IMG/VR virus record: IMGVR_UViG_3300021387_000463
Coordinates: 107,001 to 171,000 of that record
Length of the DNA: 64,000 nucleotides
Direction: 5' to 3' (one strand)
DNA from: a virus
Taxonomy: Duplodnaviria; Heunggongvirae; Uroviricota; Caudoviricetes
This document shows positions 3,406-27,454 of the stretch, piece after piece (the first letter of the stretch is position 1; each line of letters starts with the position of its first letter). The notes beneath the pieces are model-generated. The model worked only from the letters and a program-made list of their open reading frames with translations. It searched no databases and was not told where the DNA came from. Position numbers and translations under genes: made by a program.

Positions 3406-3494
3406 CAATAAGCTTCGGAAGGCAGCAACGATGGTGGTGTTGTGCTAGACTGTAAATCTGGTCCCACAGGGTAAACATTGGGGGTTCGAATCCC
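3406..3494 (+). tRNA. tRNA-Tyr(GTA)-like, type II
   Basis: acceptor cggaagg/ccttccg; anticodon stem ctaga/tctgg with loop ctgtaaa; T arm ggggg/ttcgaat/ccctc; long variable region. Confidence 0.45.
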
Positions 3495-3601
3495 TCCCTT
3501 CCGACAAATGCTAACACAAGTCTTTAGGCAACCTCTCTAAGAGCAGCATAAGACTATAGAGGTAATAATGCAAGAATTCTAGAGTGTTGGTATTTTTAAA
3601 T

Positions 3602-3694
3602 CGGAAGGTAACGGCAGTGGTCTGTAAAACCACCCTGCTTAACAAATTGTCGTAGTGGACTCGCAGTAAGGGGGTTCAAATCCCTCCCTTCCGA
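3602..3694 (+). tRNA. aberrant tRNA-like paralog of 3406 (D region too short, extra 36-nt segment)
   Basis: same acceptor cggaagg/ccttccg and T arm; gtggtctgtaaaaccac hairpin sits too close to the acceptor to be the anticodon arm. Confidence 0.3.
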
Positions 3695-3703
3695 CATACA
3701 GAC

Positions 3704-3784
3704 TGTGGAGTTCCAGAGTGGTCAAATGGGGGGGTCTGTAAAACCTCTGCTTCGGCTTCGTAGGTTCAAATCCTACCTCCACAA
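3704..3784 (+). tRNA. tRNA-Tyr(GTA)-like, 13-nt variable region
   Basis: acceptor tgtggag/ctccaca; anticodon stem ggggt/acctc with loop ctgtaaa at the expected position; T arm gtagg/ttcaaat/cctac. Confidence 0.45.
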
Positions 3785-3794
3785 CAAAATAAAT

Positions 3795-4616: not shown

Positions 4617-5600
4617 TTGGCTGATTTTTATGCGAGTTCGACTCTATATTATATAGAAATATGTAATTATATGGATGAATTAACAAAAAAAATCAGAGAA
4701 TTAAAATTTGAAAAGGGGTATTCAAATAGTCAAATTTCAAAAGAATTGGGAGTAACAATAGAAAAAGCAAAAAGAGTTACTTGTAAAAGATATGATGAAA
4801 CATTAAAAAAGAAGGAAATTAGAAAAAATGCTGAAAAAGAATTTGTTGATTTAGTAAAACGATATTTACCATTGTCTAATTCTTTAAATCATTTATGTAA
4901 CAATTTAGGGTTGAGAGGTGTAGACGGATATTATAAGAAACTAAAACGAATAATATCAGAATATAATCTATCTACTGAACATTTTGGTACTATTAAAATT
5001 AGCCGATTTGGTGTAGCTAGAAACAAAGTAACCGCAATGACGGACGAAGAATTTTTTGTAAAAGGTTCTAAACGTAGCGGAGACTCAATAATTAAAAGAT
5101 TAATTGAAGGTGAATATAAAGAATATAAATGTGAAAATTGTGGTATAAGTGAGTGGGATGGAAAACCATTGAGGCTGCAAGTCCACCATATAAACGGAGA
5201 CCATAACGACAATAGAGTTGAGAACATTCAGTTATTATGCCCAAATTGTCATGCACAAACTGACACATATGCAAGGCATAACACTACTAAGAATGGTGGG
5301 TTTGTTGTTAAAAACATTGAAGAGCTAAAAGATAGTATTAATTATGTCAAGCCAAAATATTGCAAAAAATGTGGCAAAGAAATAACTAATGGCAGTAATG
5401 AATATTGTTCTCATGAATGTGCTCAAAAAGCCTCTAGAAGATTTGAAGTATCATCAGCACAGTTGATAGAAGACTTCAAAGAACTTAAATCATTCACAGC
5501 AGTAGGTAGAAAATATAATGTTAGCGATAATGCAATAAGAAGAAGAGTTAAAAAACTTGGAGTATATGAAGAAGTAAGACAATTTATCACTCCAAGGTAA
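4617..5600 (+). CDS. HNH homing endonuclease with zinc ribbon and C-terminal HTH
   Basis: HHINGDHNDNRVENIQLLCPNCH HNH motif; CKKCGKEITNGSNEYCSHEC zinc ribbon; C-terminal YNVSDNAIRRRVKKLGV. Confidence 0.7.
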   Translation: MADFYASSTLYYIEICNYMDELTKKIRELKFEKGYSNSQISKELGVTIEKAKRVTCKRYDETLKKKEIRKNAEKEFVDLVKRYLPLSNSLNHLCNNLGLRGVDGYYKKLKRIISEYNLSTEHFGTIKISRFGVARNKVTAMTDEEFFVKGSKRSGDSIIKRLIEGEYKEYKCENCGISEWDGKPLRLQVHHINGDHNDNRVENIQLLCPNCHAQTDTYARHNTTKNGGFVVKNIEELKDSINYVKPKYCKKCGKEITNGSNEYCSHECAQKASRRFEVSSAQLIEDFKELKSFTAVGRKYNVSDNAIRRRVKKLGVYEEVRQFITPR

Positions 5601-6069: not shown

Positions 6070-6115
6070 ACTGACTAATATTTCTAAAAAAAATAATATA
6101 AGTAAGAAAAAAGTT

Positions 6116-7132
6116 ATGAAGAAAATTCTTTTAATGTTGGCACTCTTTAGTGCCGTAGTGAGTGCAAATGCACAGATTGCAACTGAAAACAGCAACGCTC
6201 TCGATAATTTGAGTATTGGTGTAACTGGTGGAGTATCAACTCCGCTTGATTTTAACTCAATCTTCCCACTTAACACAAATGTGGGTTTGAAGATTGCAAA
6301 GGATTTCACTCCAGCATTTGGAGTAGAGGCTGAAGGTATCGCATTCCTTAATGACAATCACTTCAGTGACATCAAAACTGCTGTAAAGGCAACAAACGTT
6401 GGTCTTAGTGGTGTATTTAATCTATCAAATATCTTTGGCGGTTATCAAGGTACTCCACGTGTGTTTGAGGTTAAGACCGTAACAGGTATTGGTTGGCTAC
6501 ATAGTTGGGACACACCAAATAACTTCTTGACATCTAAGACTGGTCTTGATTTCGTATTCAATGTTGGTAAGAAAAAGGCTCACAGCTTTGTATTGACACC
6601 AGCAGTGTATTGGAATCTTAATAAGTTCGGTAATGTTAAGTTTAATAAGCATGACTCACAGTTAGCTATTAACTTATCATACATTTACCACTTTAAGACA
6701 AGCAATGGAACACATCATTTCAAGACATACGATGTTGGCGCAATGATTAGCGAGATTGACCGCTTGAATGGCGCATTATCAGAGTGTGAGAGTCGTGAGC
6801 CACAAGTTAAGGAGGTAGAGAGAGTTGTAGAAAAAACTGTTACAGTAAATGAGCCTAATACAAAGTGGATTGTTCCATTTGAGTTTGGTAAGTCAAGTTT
6901 GACACCAGCTGCTGTATTTATCCTTAATCAGATTGGCGAGGATTCAATAGTAGAGATTACAGCAACGGCATCTCCAGAGGGTAGTAAGGAGTTTAATCAG
7001 AAGCTTTCTGAAATGAGAGCTGCAAAGGTTTCTGACTTTTTGACTAAGCGTGGAGTTAAGGTTGCAAGTGCTGAAGGTAAGGGAGTTGACTCTGAGAAGG
7101 GTAGGACTGCCATTGTGATAACTGTACAGTAG
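6116..7132 (+). CDS. OmpA-family outer-membrane protein (beta-barrel + peptidoglycan-binding domain)
   Basis: signal peptide MKKILLMLALFSAVVSANA; C-terminal SKEFNQKLSEMRAAKVSDFLTKRGV...GKGV resembles the OmpA_C motif; ORF-track start 6050 trimmed to the signal-peptide Met. Confidence 0.6.
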   Translation: MKKILLMLALFSAVVSANAQIATENSNALDNLSIGVTGGVSTPLDFNSIFPLNTNVGLKIAKDFTPAFGVEAEGIAFLNDNHFSDIKTAVKATNVGLSGVFNLSNIFGGYQGTPRVFEVKTVTGIGWLHSWDTPNNFLTSKTGLDFVFNVGKKKAHSFVLTPAVYWNLNKFGNVKFNKHDSQLAINLSYIYHFKTSNGTHHFKTYDVGAMISEIDRLNGALSECESREPQVKEVERVVEKTVTVNEPNTKWIVPFEFGKSSLTPAAVFILNQIGEDSIVEITATASPEGSKEFNQKLSEMRAAKVSDFLTKRGVKVASAEGKGVDSEKGRTAIVITVQ

Positions 7133-8722: not shown

Positions 8723-8869
8723 GGAAACATCCAGCAAATACAGAGTTGTTATTAGAAATTGCTACCGAAACGGTATGTGGGTTCGACTCCCACACGTCTA
8801 TCTTAACGAGGGCGTTGGTGAAATTGGTATACACGGCTATTGTAGAACAAAATGTTTCCGAATTTTTTT
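8723..8869. repeat. TACAGCAA element copy with internal T-arm hairpin
   Basis: ggaaacatccagcaa (8723-8737); internal gtggg/ttcgact/cccac; complementary atgtttcc (8852-8859) + gaatttttttat. Confidence 0.4.
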
Positions 8870-8924
8870 ATATCAAAACGTATACACTTTTTGAAATTCA
8901 TGATATTTATATAAAAAGAATATT

Positions 8925-9377
8925 ATGAATAGCAAATTAGAGTATATAAAGGAAAATTTGGATATTATCAATGAAATGATTAAAGATAATAGACCTAAGT
9001 TTGAGATAGCTAGGATTTTGGGCGTTAAGTATGATACATTAAATAAGAATCTTAAGCTATTAGGAATTGAGTATGCAGGTAATCCAAACAGAAAAGGAAT
9101 GAAACATGAGGATGGTAAAATTTCTGCATATGAATACTTAGGTACTAACAAATTTATAACTGCTCCTAAACTAAGAAATAAATTAATAGAAGAGGGTATC
9201 AAAGGGGAAATATGTGAAAGGTGTGGAAATAGTACCTGGATGGGTGAGAAAATACCATTAGAGTTACATCATATAAATGGAAATCACTATGATAATAGAT
9301 TAGAGAATTTACAAATTCTATGTCCGAATTGTCATATGCAAGTACATGGTTATTCTAACACTAAGCACAAAGAATAG
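8925..9377 (+). CDS. HNH homing endonuclease (150 aa)
   Basis: CERCGNS...HHINGNHYDNRLENLQILCPNCH. Confidence 0.7.
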   Translation: MNSKLEYIKENLDIINEMIKDNRPKFEIARILGVKYDTLNKNLKLLGIEYAGNPNRKGMKHEDGKISAYEYLGTNKFITAPKLRNKLIEEGIKGEICERCGNSTWMGEKIPLELHHINGNHYDNRLENLQILCPNCHMQVHGYSNTKHKE

Positions 9378-11264: not shown

Positions 11265-11688
11265 CAATGTCAAAAGGTAATAATGAAGTAAGAATTTAAG
11301 AAAAATACAAAAAAATTCGTCAAAAACGAAACTTTTTGAATTTAAATATATAATTATAGAAAAAAATCAATACATTTTATATTATGATTACAGTAGTTAA
11401 AAATATCGTCAAAGCCAATGCTAGTTCATTTACATCAAGTAAGTGGAATGATGCCATTGTATCTAATTTTGATGCAAAAGGTAAGCAACAGCTATGCGGT
11501 GATATGGAAGTCTGATATAAGATGTAAGAAAATCTAGGCACTTACTTCACTATATATTTCCCAAGCTGTTGATGAACTCCTAAAAAAAGTAATCAGCAGC
11601 TTTTTTTGTTTGCTTAACTTTTCTTAACTCAGAAAATTTGGATAATAAAAAAATTTTTAGTATCTTTGCAAAAAAAATTGTGTTCGGA

Positions 11689-16166: not shown

Positions 16167-16293
16167 GGTGACGTAGCTCAGTCGGTAGAGCACTAAAAAA
16201 TCAACGTGTTGCCTCGTGTGCGCAACCCACAGCAAATATTATGATGAATGGCTGTTAACCAAGGGGTCTGTGGTTCGAGTCCACACGTCACCG
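16167..16293 (+). tRNA. oversized tRNA-like gene (127 nt) with ~75-nt insertion after the D arm
   Basis: perfect acceptor ggtgacg/cgtcacc; canonical D arm ta-gctc-agtcggta-gagc and T arm tgtgg/ttcgagt/ccaca; insertion carries gcgcaac-CCACAGCAA and gctgttaacc. Confidence 0.35.
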
Positions 16294-22237: not shown

Positions 22238-22780
22238 CAAAACATAATGGGCTTGAATGGTATAGAACGTTATGCGTCTGGTAAAGGACAAGCAGTGGGC
22301 ATACACTTCAAATAGCAAAAAAAACAAACGCAGAGAACGTAGATTCTCCTGCTTATGAGTACGCTATAGCTGCGTAAGCATGAGCCGAGAGGCTAGGCTC
22401 TTAGGAACAGAACATCCTAGCAAACTTTTTTTAGCTTCGTGCTAGATGGTGGAATCGGTGACTCTAGTCATCCCCCAAGTTTTCCTTGTTTTCTCAAAAT
22501 AAGGTGGCGGATTTTCGACAGCAATGTCAACTTTCCAATTTAAGCTTGTATAATCCTTTATGGGATGGTAATTGTGACGAGGGTTCGAATCCCTCCAGGT
22601 CCACTTAATAATCAGTCAGGGTTGGATGATGAAGTAAACTTTTACAGTAAAGTTATGCTATATTAGGATAAAAGTCATGTATTAATCTGTATAACATACA
22701 TGGAAGGGAATCTTTCATAAGTACATTGAAGAGGTTCGTGTAGCTGATTATTTTATAAAAGAAAAAAAGTTCTTTGAAAA

Positions 22781-22812
22781 TTTGGAAATCTCAAAAATTA
22801 TCTATATCTTTG
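22781..22812 (+). promoter_or_regulatory. Bacteroidetes-type promoter
   Basis: aaaTTTGgaaatctcaaaaattatctaTATCTTTGca. Confidence 0.6.
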
Positions 22813-22836
22813 CACTGTTAAACAAAACAATACATT

Positions 22837-23088
22837 ATGAGTAAGATATTAGAGAGCGAATTTAGAAAAGAGTTGTATAAGTCTCTTACTGAGGCTGGCT
22901 ACGAGAAGAAAGAAGCTCAAGCCATTGTAGGCAAGAAGTATTATGAGGCACTTAAAGTTGACCTTGTAGATAGAATGAAGAGACAGATTGCAAACATAGA
23001 AAGTGAGAATTCTGAGTTGGTACTCAGTGCAGAGGAATATAACAATGCTCTTACTGAGTTAGAAAAATTAAAAGAATTTGCAAAATGA
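22837..23088 (+). CDS. hypothetical coiled-coil protein (83 aa)
   Basis: ORF 25 nt after the promoter. Confidence 0.55.
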   Translation: MSKILESEFRKELYKSLTEAGYEKKEAQAIVGKKYYEALKVDLVDRMKRQIANIESENSELVLSAEEYNNALTELEKLKEFAK

Positions 23089-23332
23089 TGAAAAAAAGTT
23101 CCTAAAAAATTTGGAATTCTCGAAAATTATCTATATCTTTGCAAAGTGAAAAGAAATAAATGAGGAAACTAACAGCAAACATTTAAACATCAAACTGTAA
23201 ATTTGAACAACGTTTAAAAAGTTTCCGTTTTATTATATAACATAGCGGCAGAGTGAAACAGATTACACGCTAGGCTCATAACCTAGAAACACCAAGTGCG
23301 ACTCTTGCGTGCCGCCACTTGATTTGGAAGAT

Positions 23333-23443
23333 ACCAGAGGAGAACAGTCGTAAGGCTGATGTAGACAAATGGGCACTAAGTTCGTGCTTAGTGTGCTTCT
23401 TCAGAAGCTTCGTGGTGTGCAAATCCCACTCTTCCAACAAGGG
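23333..23443 (+). ncRNA. structured RNA repeat unit, copy 1
   Basis: direct ~111-nt repeat of 23504-23617; hairpin cactaag-ttcgtg-cttagtg vs catcaag-ttcgtg-cttgatg in copy 2 (compensatory changes). Confidence 0.4.
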
Positions 23444-23503
23444 AAATGCTTAAGGAAGCGAATAATTTGTGGTGTACAAAGTAAAAAAACACCTTTTGGT
23501 AAG

Positions 23504-23617
23504 TACCAGAGGAGAACTGTCAGCAATGGCAGATGTAGACAAATGGGCATCAAGTTCGTGCTTGATGTGGCTCTTCGGAGTCTTCAGCAGTGCAAATCTG
23601 CTCTTACCAACGATTCC
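23504..23617 (+). ncRNA. structured RNA repeat unit, copy 2
   Basis: see copy 1; shared taccagaggagaac...gatgtagacaaatgggca...gtgcaaatc. Confidence 0.4.
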
Positions 23618-24440
23618 AACATTGTAGGCTTCGGCTGAAAATGAGGAGTTTGGCTAGCTTTCGTAGCCAAATGAAGGATAATCCAGTGATGGGACTAAAT
23701 GTGATGTGAAATTGACCATAGTAGCATTGCAGATATGTAGGGGCAACCCTATGTATTTCACTGAAAAGCATATGGCACGGTCTACGCTGGGGGTAACACC
23801 CTAGGCGTAGGTTCTCAAGGGCTGAATGTCTTTGAGTGAGTGGTAACACAATAGATTGCCATATGGAACTCGATGCAATAGTCACCAGTTGGCGTGTTGG
23901 GTTCAGTTATATGCTAGTCTCAAGTTGAAATGCTTGAGAACCGTAAGGCTGATAGTATGTAATAGCAATTGGACTTGTGGTGAGTCTTTGTAGGGAGGCG
24001 ATTTCGTGGGTCGTGCTCAAAAGGCACGAATGCGATGGGTCGCACCTCGTCTTCCAATGGTCGTGCAAATTTCCAAAATTTGATTTGAAATATGGTTCAA
24101 ATGTTTATTTAGCAAAAGTGTGCGACACTAGGCAGCTAAAATGCACTTATCCTTCTGCAATATGAAGGGGTTGGGGACTCGCAAGGAATCCAACAAGAGA
24201 GTAAAAGTACTCGTCTGAGTCAACAGGAGGCATCCTGTGAATCCGCAAGAGCTTGGCGAAGAACTGAAATCTATGATGCTGTACCGAAAGGTTTAAACTA
24301 GTAAGTGTTTGGTTGTTTTCGCAAAACCTCCGTGCATGGTGTCTACGGCTATCGTAAGGTAGCGTGTGAACAGCAACGTCCAACCGTTGTGAAATGACAT
24401 CTACAACAAGACAATGTTCTCAGTCTTTTGTTTTTACATA

Positions 24441-24564
24441 GGGAGTTAGCTTAATGGTCAGAGTAATTTTGTTGCGATTTAAGCTACAACACAGTCTCGA
24501 CTTCGGAACAGATTGATGCTTTAACTGATAATGAAAAAATGGTGGTTCGAGTCCATCACTCCCT
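24441..24564 (+). tRNA. oversized tRNA-like gene (124 nt)
   Basis: acceptor gggagtt/cactccc (6/7); T arm ggtgg/ttcgagt/ccatc; body contains ctgataa (Ile-type loop) and a UUCG hairpin. Confidence 0.3.
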
Positions 24565-24725
24565 GCGTACCGTTTTGGGGCACTTTTTGAGTAAACAAAG
24601 TGTTAAACTTTGGCACTAGATAGCTACTAGGTGTTATGGGTTGGAAAGTTTGAATCCCTTGGGGGTTTGTAGAATGTAATGTTTTTAACCAACTGTTTTT
24701 GATACGGCTTAATATTTAATTATAT

Positions 24726-25052
24726 ATGAGAGACTTTACTTATAGTGGTTTCGAAAACCAAGAGGCATGTAACCATTTAAGAAATGGAGAAACTTGTAAG
24801 GTTACTGGTATTGGAAACTCTATGACTCCCATATTAAAGTCGAGGCAAGCAGTAATATGCGAACCAGTAAAAGATGATACTAAACTTAACAAACGAGACA
24901 TTGTACTTTGTAAAGTAAGGGGTCATCATTATTTGCATTTAATACATGCCATCAAGAATGATAATGAATACCTTATTGGTAATAATCATGGTCATATGAA
25001 TGGTTGGGTATCCAAAAAGCAAATCTATGGTAAAGTCGTAGAAGTTCTCTAA
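24726..25052 (+). CDS. S24-like peptidase paralog (108 aa)
   Basis: GNSMTPILKS...VLCKVRG; homologous to 263-685. Confidence 0.5.
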   Translation: MRDFTYSGFENQEACNHLRNGETCKVTGIGNSMTPILKSRQAVICEPVKDDTKLNKRDIVLCKVRGHHYLHLIHAIKNDNEYLIGNNHGHMNGWVSKKQIYGKVVEVL

Positions 25053-25106
25053 GGTCACAAAAGGCAAATTAGGGTTCGATTCCCTAGTGACTGACAATAT
25101 GTTTAT

Positions 25107-25179
25107 GGGCTGTATGGTGTAGTTGGCTAACACGACTCCCTTGCACGGAGTAATTGCGGTTCGAATCCGATATGGTCCA
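25107..25179 (+). tRNA. tRNA-Ala(TGC)-like second copy
   Basis: anticodon stem actcc/ggagt with loop cttgcac; acceptor gggctgt/atggtcc pairs with 3 G-U; weak T stem. Confidence 0.4.
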
Positions 25180-25616
25180 CTAAGGTTTGGAATAATGCTA
25201 CGATGAGTAGGTAGAGAGTTTCGTAGTGTGGCTCTACCAGTTTCCAAAACCTTAAACAATAAACTTACGATAGAGGCGTAGATATACAAGCGTGGGTACA
25301 TTTGTCGCAAGGGTACACACTAAGAAGAATGTAGATTGAGGTATGTAACAATGTCTATATAGTTCCACTAGCATATGGAATACTATCTCATTCGATGCTA
25401 CCTAATGGTGTGTGAAGCACTCTGTGAAGTTCCTATGAGTGGATGGGTAAAAATAAGTCTTCAGCAGAGAAAGCCAGATTCCTGATAAAGTATATCCGTA
25501 AGTTTTTAAACATTGCGAGTTAGACTGGAGGTAGTCCCAGCACGGTCTCATAAGCCGTTCTACGTGAGTGCAACTCTCACACTCGCTACAACACTAATGT
25601 TTTGTGAACATTATTA

Positions 25617-27141: not shown

Positions 27142-27226
27142 GGGCATATGGCTGAGTGGTCGATAGCGGCAGTCTCTAAAACTGTTATGGCGAAAGTCAT
27201 CGTGGGTTCGAATCCTACTATGCTCA
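27142..27226 (+). tRNA. amber suppressor tRNA, anticodon CTA, type II (Ser/Leu/Tyr-like body)
   Basis: acceptor gggcata/tatgctc all paired; D arm tg-gctg-agtggtcgata-gcgg; anticodon stem gcagt/actgt with loop ctctaaa at the expected position; long variable arm; T arm gtggg/ttcgaat/cctac. Confidence 0.5.
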
Positions 27227-27454
27227 CTACGGCTGGTGTATCCATAGTGGATGCTGAAATAAGTGAGACAGCGCAAGCCATGTAAGAAGTGGCAGATGAA
27301 GCAGCAATGCGGTGCGAGGATTAGTCCCTTGCCCTAGTTCCTTGATGGTTAAGAGGATACCTTCATGGTTGATACAGGTAAACCTAATTTACTATTATGA
27401 TAGAATATCTCAAAAAATTAGAAGCAACGATGTGCAAGCATAAATGGGAGGATT

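Follow-up and report, generated by a model that had tools for sequence, protein, structure and literature searches.

We analysed a 64,000-nt stretch of DNA from a virus of the Caudoviricetes (IMG/VR record IMGVR_UViG_3300021387_000463, positions 107,001 to 171,000; hereafter the window), whose setting is a tRNA island on the + strand: ARAGORN called 43 tRNAs and a transfer-messenger RNA (tmRNA), and the GC content is 33-43%. Within it lies a block free of open reading frames (ORFs), bounded by an 83-aa ORF that ends at 23088 and a 108-aa ORF that starts at 24726. The original prediction, made from the sequence alone, had held that no credible ORF exists in 23100-24720, and this was borne out, as the longest stop-free runs within 23089-24725 were 92 codons on the + strand and 100 codons on the - strand. 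With TAG, TGA or TAA read as sense, the + strand runs did not exceed 117 codons, and a protein-coding block was rejected because there is no long + strand frame under standard or reassigned stops. From 5' to 3', the block consists of a promoter-like box at 23134, a tRNA-Met-like gene, a first tRNA-like unit, a leader pseudoknot, a second unit, a GOLLD RNA (5' domain, linker, 3' domain) and a tRNA with an insert; we are highly confident of the identity of these parts. The prediction had offered either a large RNA of the GOLLD or ROOL class or a cluster of small RNAs, and both descriptions turned out to be true, the large RNA being GOLLD (3'-domain match, 23993-24426). The block is a divergent new lineage of a known RNA class, together with an undescribed and abundant tRNA-like family that is physically coupled to it.

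GOLLD is among the largest noncoding RNAs of bacteria and phages and builds RNA-only cages; to our knowledge, its role has been unknown since 2009. On the + strand, 23993-24426 matched the whole length of the Rfam GOLLD model RF02032 (positions 1-416 of 416; 73.6 bits, E 1.5e-18). The alignment covers a UCAAAAG-capped first hairpin (23993-24055), an A/U-rich variable linker (~24056-24110), AGCAAAAGU and a terminal ...GUUCUCAGUCU, with which the multi-helix core ends. The Rfam scan that had been suggested as a check gave a divided answer: GOLLD was found at the E-value threshold and missed at the gathering score (73.6 versus 150 bits), where only tRNAs and the tmRNA were returned, and ROOL and HEARO were not found. 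These two classes, OLE, ribozymes, riboswitches and the other Rfam large RNAs gave no match at E up to 10 in 22600-25200. A negative Rfam scan had been named as grounds for refutation; the outcome depends on the threshold used, because GOLLD is found by E-value and absent at the gathering score. The 150-bit value is an annotation cutoff and no biological feature, and the miss marks a divergent lineage outside the diversity of the seed.

Relatives of the window corroborated the match, which is common to 13 related phage loci. The same 3' domain was found by nhmmer in 12 IMG/VR loci (E 1e-67 to 2e-98), and RF02032 matched all seven relatives that were scanned (45.5-98.7 bits, E 9e-9 to 6e-25). 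When the Rfam consensus pairs were mapped through the window sequence onto an alignment of 12 sequences of this lineage, the window sequence itself among them, 91.2% of cells were paired and 27 of the 85 pairs showed compensatory changes, with a covariation of 0.32 compared with 0.16 for shuffled and at most 0.10 for slid partners. The Rfam helices are well kept, 13 of 14 being paired in 74% or more. An independent RNAalifold run gave the same helices, with the long-range helix (ACUAG/CUAGU plus GCAGC/GCUGY) in a shifted register and covarying. The linker is about 55 nt long in the window and holds a tRNA in several relatives (Ser in L005, Leu in L011 and L025, Asn in L027; a partial tRNA match in L029), and a variable GOLLD linker holding a tRNA is a published trait (PMC12286853, PMC12990946). 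The 3' half of the block is thus truly related to the GOLLD 3' domain, though divergent from it. A possible kissing interaction of the unit T loop (GUGCAAAU) with an identical string in the window's GOLLD linker was dropped, as the linker string is not kept in relatives. Unannotated GOLLD-like 3' domains were also found by nhmmer in the Lak-B1 (L001 3001-3398) and Lak-A1 (L002 3001-3400) phages; these matches are weak (E ~1e-20), and the two loci gave no Rfam GOLLD match at E up to 0.01.

Directly upstream, 23612-23992 (+ strand) forms a structured domain of 380 nt that is conserved in 12 loci and that we take to be the lineage-specific GOLLD 5' domain. RNAalifold predicted 96 pairs for it, 52 of them with compensatory changes. 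The 5' and 3' domains together span ~815 nt (23612-24426), which is the usual size of GOLLD and which we take as GOLLD proper. The GOLLD 5' domain is known to vary (PMC12286853). A string shared with the 5' domain of the env-38 GOLLD, GUGAG-GGUAACAC, was discarded as being at chance level, since 97 of 300 shuffles scored equally. Three relatives have ~250 extra nt between the last unit and the 5' domain (L007 ~11320-11568, L019 ~4668-4920, L025 ~8741-8989), which may be another RNA element.

The two direct repeats noticed upstream of this region are real and 83% identical. The coordinates first given for them (23333-23443 and 23504-23617) were a few bases off; the boundaries set by a covariance model are 23324-23438 for copy 1 and 23496-23611 for copy 2, both on the + strand, with scores of 136.3 and 125.5 bits against this model (R1, built from 28 distinct units), and copy 2 ends, on its 3' side, right against the GOLLD 5' domain. 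Folded individually, both repeats take up the same closed shape of five helices. The paired substitutions reported for the central hairpin (cactaag/cttagtg versus catcaag/cttgatg) are indeed compensatory, and the other four helices, namely the outer stem (UUGGAAGA/UCUUCCAA versus UUGGUAAG/CUUACCAA), the GNRA-capped hairpin, the fourth hairpin and the last hairpin, likewise differ by compensatory changes. An 18-mer common to both repeats, GATGTAGACAAATGGGCA, is present twice in the window versus 0.07 expected occurrences.

Outside the units themselves, R1 scored best with a tRNA-Tyr gene of the phage itself (3703-3785; 40 bits, E 2e-7 in 336 kb), and the next-best real tRNAs were tRNA-Met genes with a long variable arm. 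The alignment of unit and tRNA-Tyr takes in the acceptor stem and U8, the D stem (3 bp, with CCAGAG...CAAAUGG), the variable-arm hairpin and the CUUCG after it, and then the T arm, A73 and the C that comes next. Copy 1 is laid out as a U at -1, a 7-bp acceptor stem, U8 and A9, a 3-bp D stem, a variable-arm hairpin, a T arm with the loop UGCAAAU, A73 and C74; its D loop carries an insert of ~30 nt bearing a GUAA-capped hairpin, and a closed 9-bp arm stands in place of the anticodon arm. Compared with tRNA-Tyr, the D-loop insert (~30 nt, AGAAC-hairpin-GAUGUAGA) is extra, the T loop reads UGCAAAU versus UUCAAAU (G at position 55), and the anticodon arm is replaced by a covarying closed helix, CAUCAAG-UUCGUG-CUUGAUG. 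Both window copies have a closed arm of 7-9 bp with a UUCGUG tip and have no 7-nt anticodon loop, U33 or 5-bp stem. The units form a cloverleaf with a 7-bp acceptor stem, discriminator, D stem and T arm whose helices covary, and we filed them as tRNA-like elements and not as tRNAs because the anticodon loop is replaced by a closed arm.

Neither ARAGORN nor the Rfam tRNA model called any of the full-length units with the D-loop insert, even when E values up to 10 were allowed in the window, and no Rfam family matched the units. ARAGORN called one short, insert-less variant tRNA-Thr (L032, a contig from horse faeces), whose 100-nt units lack the D-loop hairpin and have a normal T loop and the same closed arm. 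Across the family, the exact tRNA-Tyr anticodon stem-loop (5 bp plus CUGUAAA) was present in three distinct relatives only, many relatives carry the G33 forms UGGUAAA or CGGUAAG, and ~80% of the family are closed-arm; most D-loop hairpins are capped by GNRA loops. The likeness to class II tRNA-Tyr therefore extends over the 7-bp acceptor stem, A73, U8, a purine at 9, a 3-bp D stem with GAG..GG..CAAA loop flanks, a long variable-arm hairpin followed by CUUC, the T arm and the gene flanks, with a few units keeping CUGUAAA, whereas the units differ in the extra ~30-nt D-loop hairpin arm, the usual UGCAAAU T loop, the mostly closed 7-9-bp helix and their being missed by tRNA finders. These comparisons show that the units derive from class II tRNA-Tyr and that most members are without an anticodon loop. 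Two odd tRNA-Tyr-like genes (3416-3505 and 3601-3695, loop CUGUAAA) with aberrant D regions and long extra segments lie beside the normal tRNA-Tyr (3704-3785).

The unit is not confined to this phage. Its 18-mer was found in 27 IMG/VR stretches, up to four times in each, two of the 27 being chance matches in coding sequence. R1 found 54 units in those IMG/VR loci and at least 137 further units in at least 80 metagenome loci, with 43 and at least 123 distinct sequences in the two sets, together more than 160, from herbivore-gut phage metagenomes. In the sets of 43 and 123 sequences, 99.4% and 99.0% of cells were paired and double changes occurred in 20 and 24 of the 33 pairs, respectively; the covariation was 0.59-0.60, compared with 0.17 for shuffled and ~0.08 for slid partners, and none of 500 shuffles reached the observed values. 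The closed arm itself is upheld by compensatory changes (CAUCAAG/CUUGAUG, CACUAAG/CUUAGUG, CAUUACU/AGUAAUG) in more than 100 distinct sequences and in the divergent horse-gut variant. Among GenBank phages there was no blastn-detectable copy of the unit, and in a pattern search of bacterial genomes four of five matches were spurious, with real units on the horse-faeces contig only. The units are an undescribed and widespread family of tRNA-Tyr derivatives that lack an anticodon, are under strong constraint and often stand in tandem.

In the collinear loci, a tRNA-Met(CAU) stands directly ahead of the array in every case, followed by one to five units, often with 3-nt spacers, and GOLLD comes last; in eight of 12 related loci, no more than a few bases separate the last unit from the GOLLD 5' domain. 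A sequence pattern for GOLLD only returned the same set of loci, and the pairing of unit and GOLLD is therefore constant in this lineage. Units also stand in tRNA arrays with 3-nt spacers and, in three relatives, between tRNA-Ile and tmRNA (L011 3538-3651, L029 8207-8320, L005 7842-7954). The possibility that the repeats are a known substructure of GOLLD was rejected, since the Rfam model does not contain them and the units also occur apart from GOLLD. In other phages, stand-alone units have their own TAnnTTTG box and intrinsic terminator. Two such units (L003 ~5440-5520 and L022 ~6070-6150, both on the - strand) are followed by a different tRNA-like element, GATAGGTAATCGCAG...GGTTCGATTCC...CCTATCAAC, and then by an intrinsic terminator.

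The flanks of the units resemble those of real tRNA genes. Of the 43 real tRNAs in the window, 36 have a U at -1, as do 181 of the 182 aligned copies of the unit; a C follows the discriminator in 39 of these 43 tRNAs and in all unit copies that extend to the 3' end. The units hence bear the gene-flank signature of the phage's real tRNAs (-1 U, discriminator then C). An H-type leader pseudoknot precedes 57 of the 182 units, in many cases by two bases, with the pattern YUUG-YGGUGGA-CAAR-N-A5-CCACC-UU (YUUG-YGGUGGA-CAAR...AAAAACCACC-UU). In the window it occupies 23466-23493 on the + strand, directly 5' of unit 2 (stem 1 UUUG/CAAA, stem 2 GGUGU/ACACC); both stems covary among its copies (stem 1 GUUG/CAAC and AGUG/CACU, stem 2 GGUGA/UCACC and GGUGG/CCACC).

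Units and GOLLD are flanked by tRNA genes on both sides. The tRNA-Met(CAU)-like gene at 23244-23317 (+ strand) had been missed in the original prediction; it scored 37.7 bits with the Rfam tRNA model (gathering score 29) and received no ARAGORN call, and it has an atypical T loop, UGCGACU (G55, like the units), and a D loop without GG. In relatives, the same position, immediately 5' of the unit array, received a tRNA-Met(cat) call from ARAGORN. The G55 T loop (GUGCGACUC, GUGCAAAUC) is often shared by the tRNA-Met genes at the head of unit arrays (in the window and in L008, L011 and L027). The window gene is 83% identical to the tRNA-Met of Lactobacillus brevis phages, and in Lactobacillus phage 3-521 (L030 4003-4601) a 520-nt unannotated gap that could hold a large RNA follows that tRNA, before the next tRNA.

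On the 3' side, the tRNA-like gene predicted at 24441-24564 was recovered as an Rfam tRNA match at 24440-24565 on the + strand (40.8 bits), with canonical acceptor, D and T arms and 65 nt left unaligned in the anticodon region. Its anticodon loop is GU-UGC-GA (Ala), followed by a structured insert of ~55 nt, and the helix that closes this insert covaries. The gene lies 13 nt past the GOLLD 3' end in all 12 loci, with the anticodon UGC in six and UAC in six. Other insert-bearing tRNA genes of 120-127 nt (Rfam tRNA 39-47 bits, inserts of 50-60 nt) were seen at 16167-16293 in the window and in three relatives (L009 10109-10232; L096 2883-3007 and 10163-10289; L052 906-1031). The insert of the 16167-16293 gene separates its D arm from an Asn (GUU) anticodon arm, and the inserts of this group are too short for group I introns.

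Taken together, these results lead us to favor, as the probable explanation of the block in full, a single RNA operon within the tRNA island. One transcript would start just after the box at 23134, and RNase P and RNase Z, or equivalents, would cut it at every tRNA-shaped element. Release of GOLLD by such tRNA-type processing appears likely: unit 2 would set the 5' end and the downstream tRNA the 3' end of the ~815-nt GOLLD, which would go on to form a multimeric shell by self-assembly, like the relatives with solved structures. The freed units of ~113 nt would be stable and non-decoding, and would most likely be tRNA-Tyr mimics that occupy a tRNA-Tyr-binding factor, for which the leading candidate would be a host defence nuclease of the kind that attacks tRNA-Tyr; the tandem copy number of one to five might serve as dosage. 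We put forward this role as mimics or decoys because the tRNA-Tyr body and variable arm are kept while decoding is abolished, because copy number varies by tandem duplication, and because Septu and the retron-Eco7 PtuAB destroy tRNA-Tyr and phages escape them by overexpression or tandem amplification of tRNA-Tyr genes (PMC11555353, PMC13096335). As a specific claim about the units, it is possible, with somewhat less than an even chance of being right. A further version, in which the units are dedicated non-decoding tRNA mimics that work with GOLLD, either as cargo or adaptor of the cage or as partners of GOLLD in neutralising host factors that attack tRNA-Tyr, seems to us rather doubtful; if true, it would provide the first concrete functional handle on GOLLD.

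Several observations weigh against the operon reading or parts of it. The GOLLD score of 73.6 bits is about half of the gathering cutoff, Rfam helix 6 holds up poorly, with 52% of cells paired, and the register in which the long-range helix of the 3' domain aligns is shifted from that of Rfam. Neither profile search nor local alignment of 23612-23992 with the env-38 5' domain, taken from the supplement of PMC12286853, showed anything above chance, although the alignment is a weak method that was also non-significant for the homologous 3' domain. Lak-A and Lak-B carry the 3' domain with no units within 3 kb, and the co-occurrence of unit and GOLLD is partly biased in that the loci were first found via the unit's own 18-mer. 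Processing may also be less simple than proposed: the leader pseudoknot ahead of unit 2 could hinder or block 5' processing, or could instead be a separate module, and the G at position 55 of the T loop could change how tRNA enzymes recognise these elements.

If the units stayed uncut, the ~1.3 kb from the tRNA-Met-like gene through the units to GOLLD would be one giant GOLLD variant, whose tRNA modules would remain attached to the particle's 5' cap and serve as cargo, adaptors or docking arms, for instance through the GNRA-capped D-loop hairpin. This would account for the one to five units directly upstream of every GOLLD of this lineage in IMG/VR, for the last unit abutting the 5' domain in eight of 12 loci and for the GNRA loops that end most D-loop hairpins, and published GOLLDs can have covalently linked tRNAs that were proposed as cargo (PMC12286853). 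It is nevertheless unlikely, in that units far from GOLLD have their own promoter and terminator or sit between tRNA-Ile and tmRNA, the flank signature is that of cleaved tRNAs, the GOLLD-like domains of Lak come without units, and free variation of copy number fits a symmetric shell poorly. Cleavage is the whole point of a different proposal, that the units are mere tRNA-shaped punctuation drawing RNase P and RNase Z to trim neighboring RNAs, like mascRNA for MALAT1 or mitochondrial tRNAs. The bracketing of GOLLD by a unit (5') and a tRNA (3') and the flank signature shared with real tRNAs agree with it, but punctuation needs an acceptor stem and T arm only, and an ordinary tRNA would suffice. 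It would leave unexplained why the 18-mer is nearly invariant, why the D-loop arm is conserved and the closed anticodon arm covaries, and why there are tandem arrays of up to five and stand-alone genes with nothing to release, which makes this quite unlikely.

That the units are working or decaying tRNA-Tyr genes, either decoders with an odd D loop or, for the closed-anticodon copies, pseudogenes, we regard as very improbable. A perfect CUGUAAA loop on a 5-bp stem is present in a few relatives (L052, L096), and the overall cloverleaf and A73 match tRNA-Tyr, yet both window copies and ~80% of the family have the closed arm, kept by compensatory changes, and decay would not yield 99% pairing; moreover, ordinary tRNA-Tyr genes are present elsewhere in the phage, and ARAGORN and the Rfam tRNA model reject the full-length units. 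The chance that the block is an artefact, a random repeat or an unrecognised coding region, is practically nil: short ORFs of up to 93 aa are all that speaks for it, no long coding-strand frame exists under any stop reassignment, and RNA-type covariation, seen in 13 collinear loci and in over 160 distinct homologous units, already refutes it.

Compared with known GOLLDs, the RNA of the window shares an end-to-end 3'-domain match with helices kept by covariation, a total length of ~800 nt, a conserved ...UCUCAGNCU 3' end, a linker that holds a tRNA in some relatives and, like the env-38 GOLLD, a position in a phage tRNA island downstream of tRNA-Met (PMC12286853). It differs in its scores (45.5-98.7 bits in this lineage versus the 150-bit cutoff), in a 5' domain without detectable similarity, in the tRNA-like units ahead of it and in its host lineage, as giant Bacteroidota phages are not mentioned alongside GOLLD in the literature searched, in which we found no paper linking GOLLD with tRNA-like elements or megaphages. 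Shells of two GOLLDs have been solved by cryo-EM (9MEE, the env-38 14-mer; 9L0R, the S. agalactiae 12-mer).

The phage tRNA-Tyr counter-defences (T5 versus the retron-Eco7 PtuAB; amplification in T6 versus Septu) resemble the present system in employing tRNA-Tyr-type molecules, a phage tRNA region and tandem expansion. In those cases, however, functional tRNAs refill the pool, whereas the units cannot decode and would have to be mimics or sponges. mascRNA and MALAT1 likewise combine a tRNA shape without a normal anticodon loop with a long noncoding RNA whose end would be made by tRNA-enzyme cleavage; that pair is eukaryotic and single-copy, with the tRNA shape on the 3' side, whereas the units are multi-copy, lie 5' of the long RNA and also stand alone. 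Phage T4 species 1 and 2 (rnaC, rnaD) are small stable non-tRNA RNAs encoded in a phage tRNA cluster and processed from its operon; in this they resemble the units, although their size and fold are not known to match.

The locus extends GOLLD to giant Bacteroidota gut phages, below the score at which databases annotate it, and in this lineage tRNA-type elements stand on either side of GOLLD and would set its two ends. Since tRNA-Tyr is a target of anti-phage nucleases and phages amplify tRNA-Tyr genes, the units are testable candidates for RNA decoys, and the constant pairing of unit and GOLLD in the lineage offers an experimental route into GOLLD function.

The box that likely starts the RNA operon, TATCTTTGCA (23134-23143, + strand), occurs 22 times in exact form in the window, each time on the + strand, and 35 times when one mismatch is allowed, versus nine expected. 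The exact copies tend to stand ahead of genes, and the same box precedes the stand-alone units in other phages; we take it to be a Bacteroidota-type -7 promoter element, TAnnTTTG, which it fits. Scans of the block for sigma-70-type promoters and for terminators gave counts at chance level and were uninformative. A noncoding trailer (24566-24725, + strand) runs from the last tRNA to the next ORF and is partly kept in L012 and L009 only; a terminator scan of it gave no + strand call. The motif acgtttaaaaagtttccg, which had been placed at 23212-23231, sits at 23210-23227 and has one relative with three mismatches in the window; its suggested link to the TACAGCAA element was not reproducible and found no support.

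IMG/VR viral contigs related to the window reach lengths of 295-412 kb, and the coding DNA of the window has no near match among GenBank phages. A blastn search of the whole block against GenBank phages returned only Prevotella Lak megaphages, which match one sub-region, the 3' domain, and Lactobacillus phage tRNA-Met matches. The source is presumably an uncultivated giant gut phage that is a distant relative of Lak, with a Bacteroidota host to which the promoter type and the relationship to Lak point. The ORF directly after the RNA block (24726-25052, 108 aa) is Peptidase_S24-like (Pfam, 24.2 bits, just over the cutoff). The tmRNA of the window lies at 22249-22604, adjacent to a tRNA-Ile, and has the tag AENVDSPAYEYAIAA. 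In the tRNA island of a related phage, a weak Rfam match to YrlA (Y RNA-like) was seen (L009 5320-5427, - strand; 36.2 bits versus a gathering score of 69, E 3e-4). A suppressor tRNA with the anticodon CUA (27142-27227, labelled tRNA-Pyl by ARAGORN) is kept across related phages and hints at reassignment of TAG, as in Lak phages; with TAG read as sense, the number of ORFs of at least 100 aa rises from 65 to 76.

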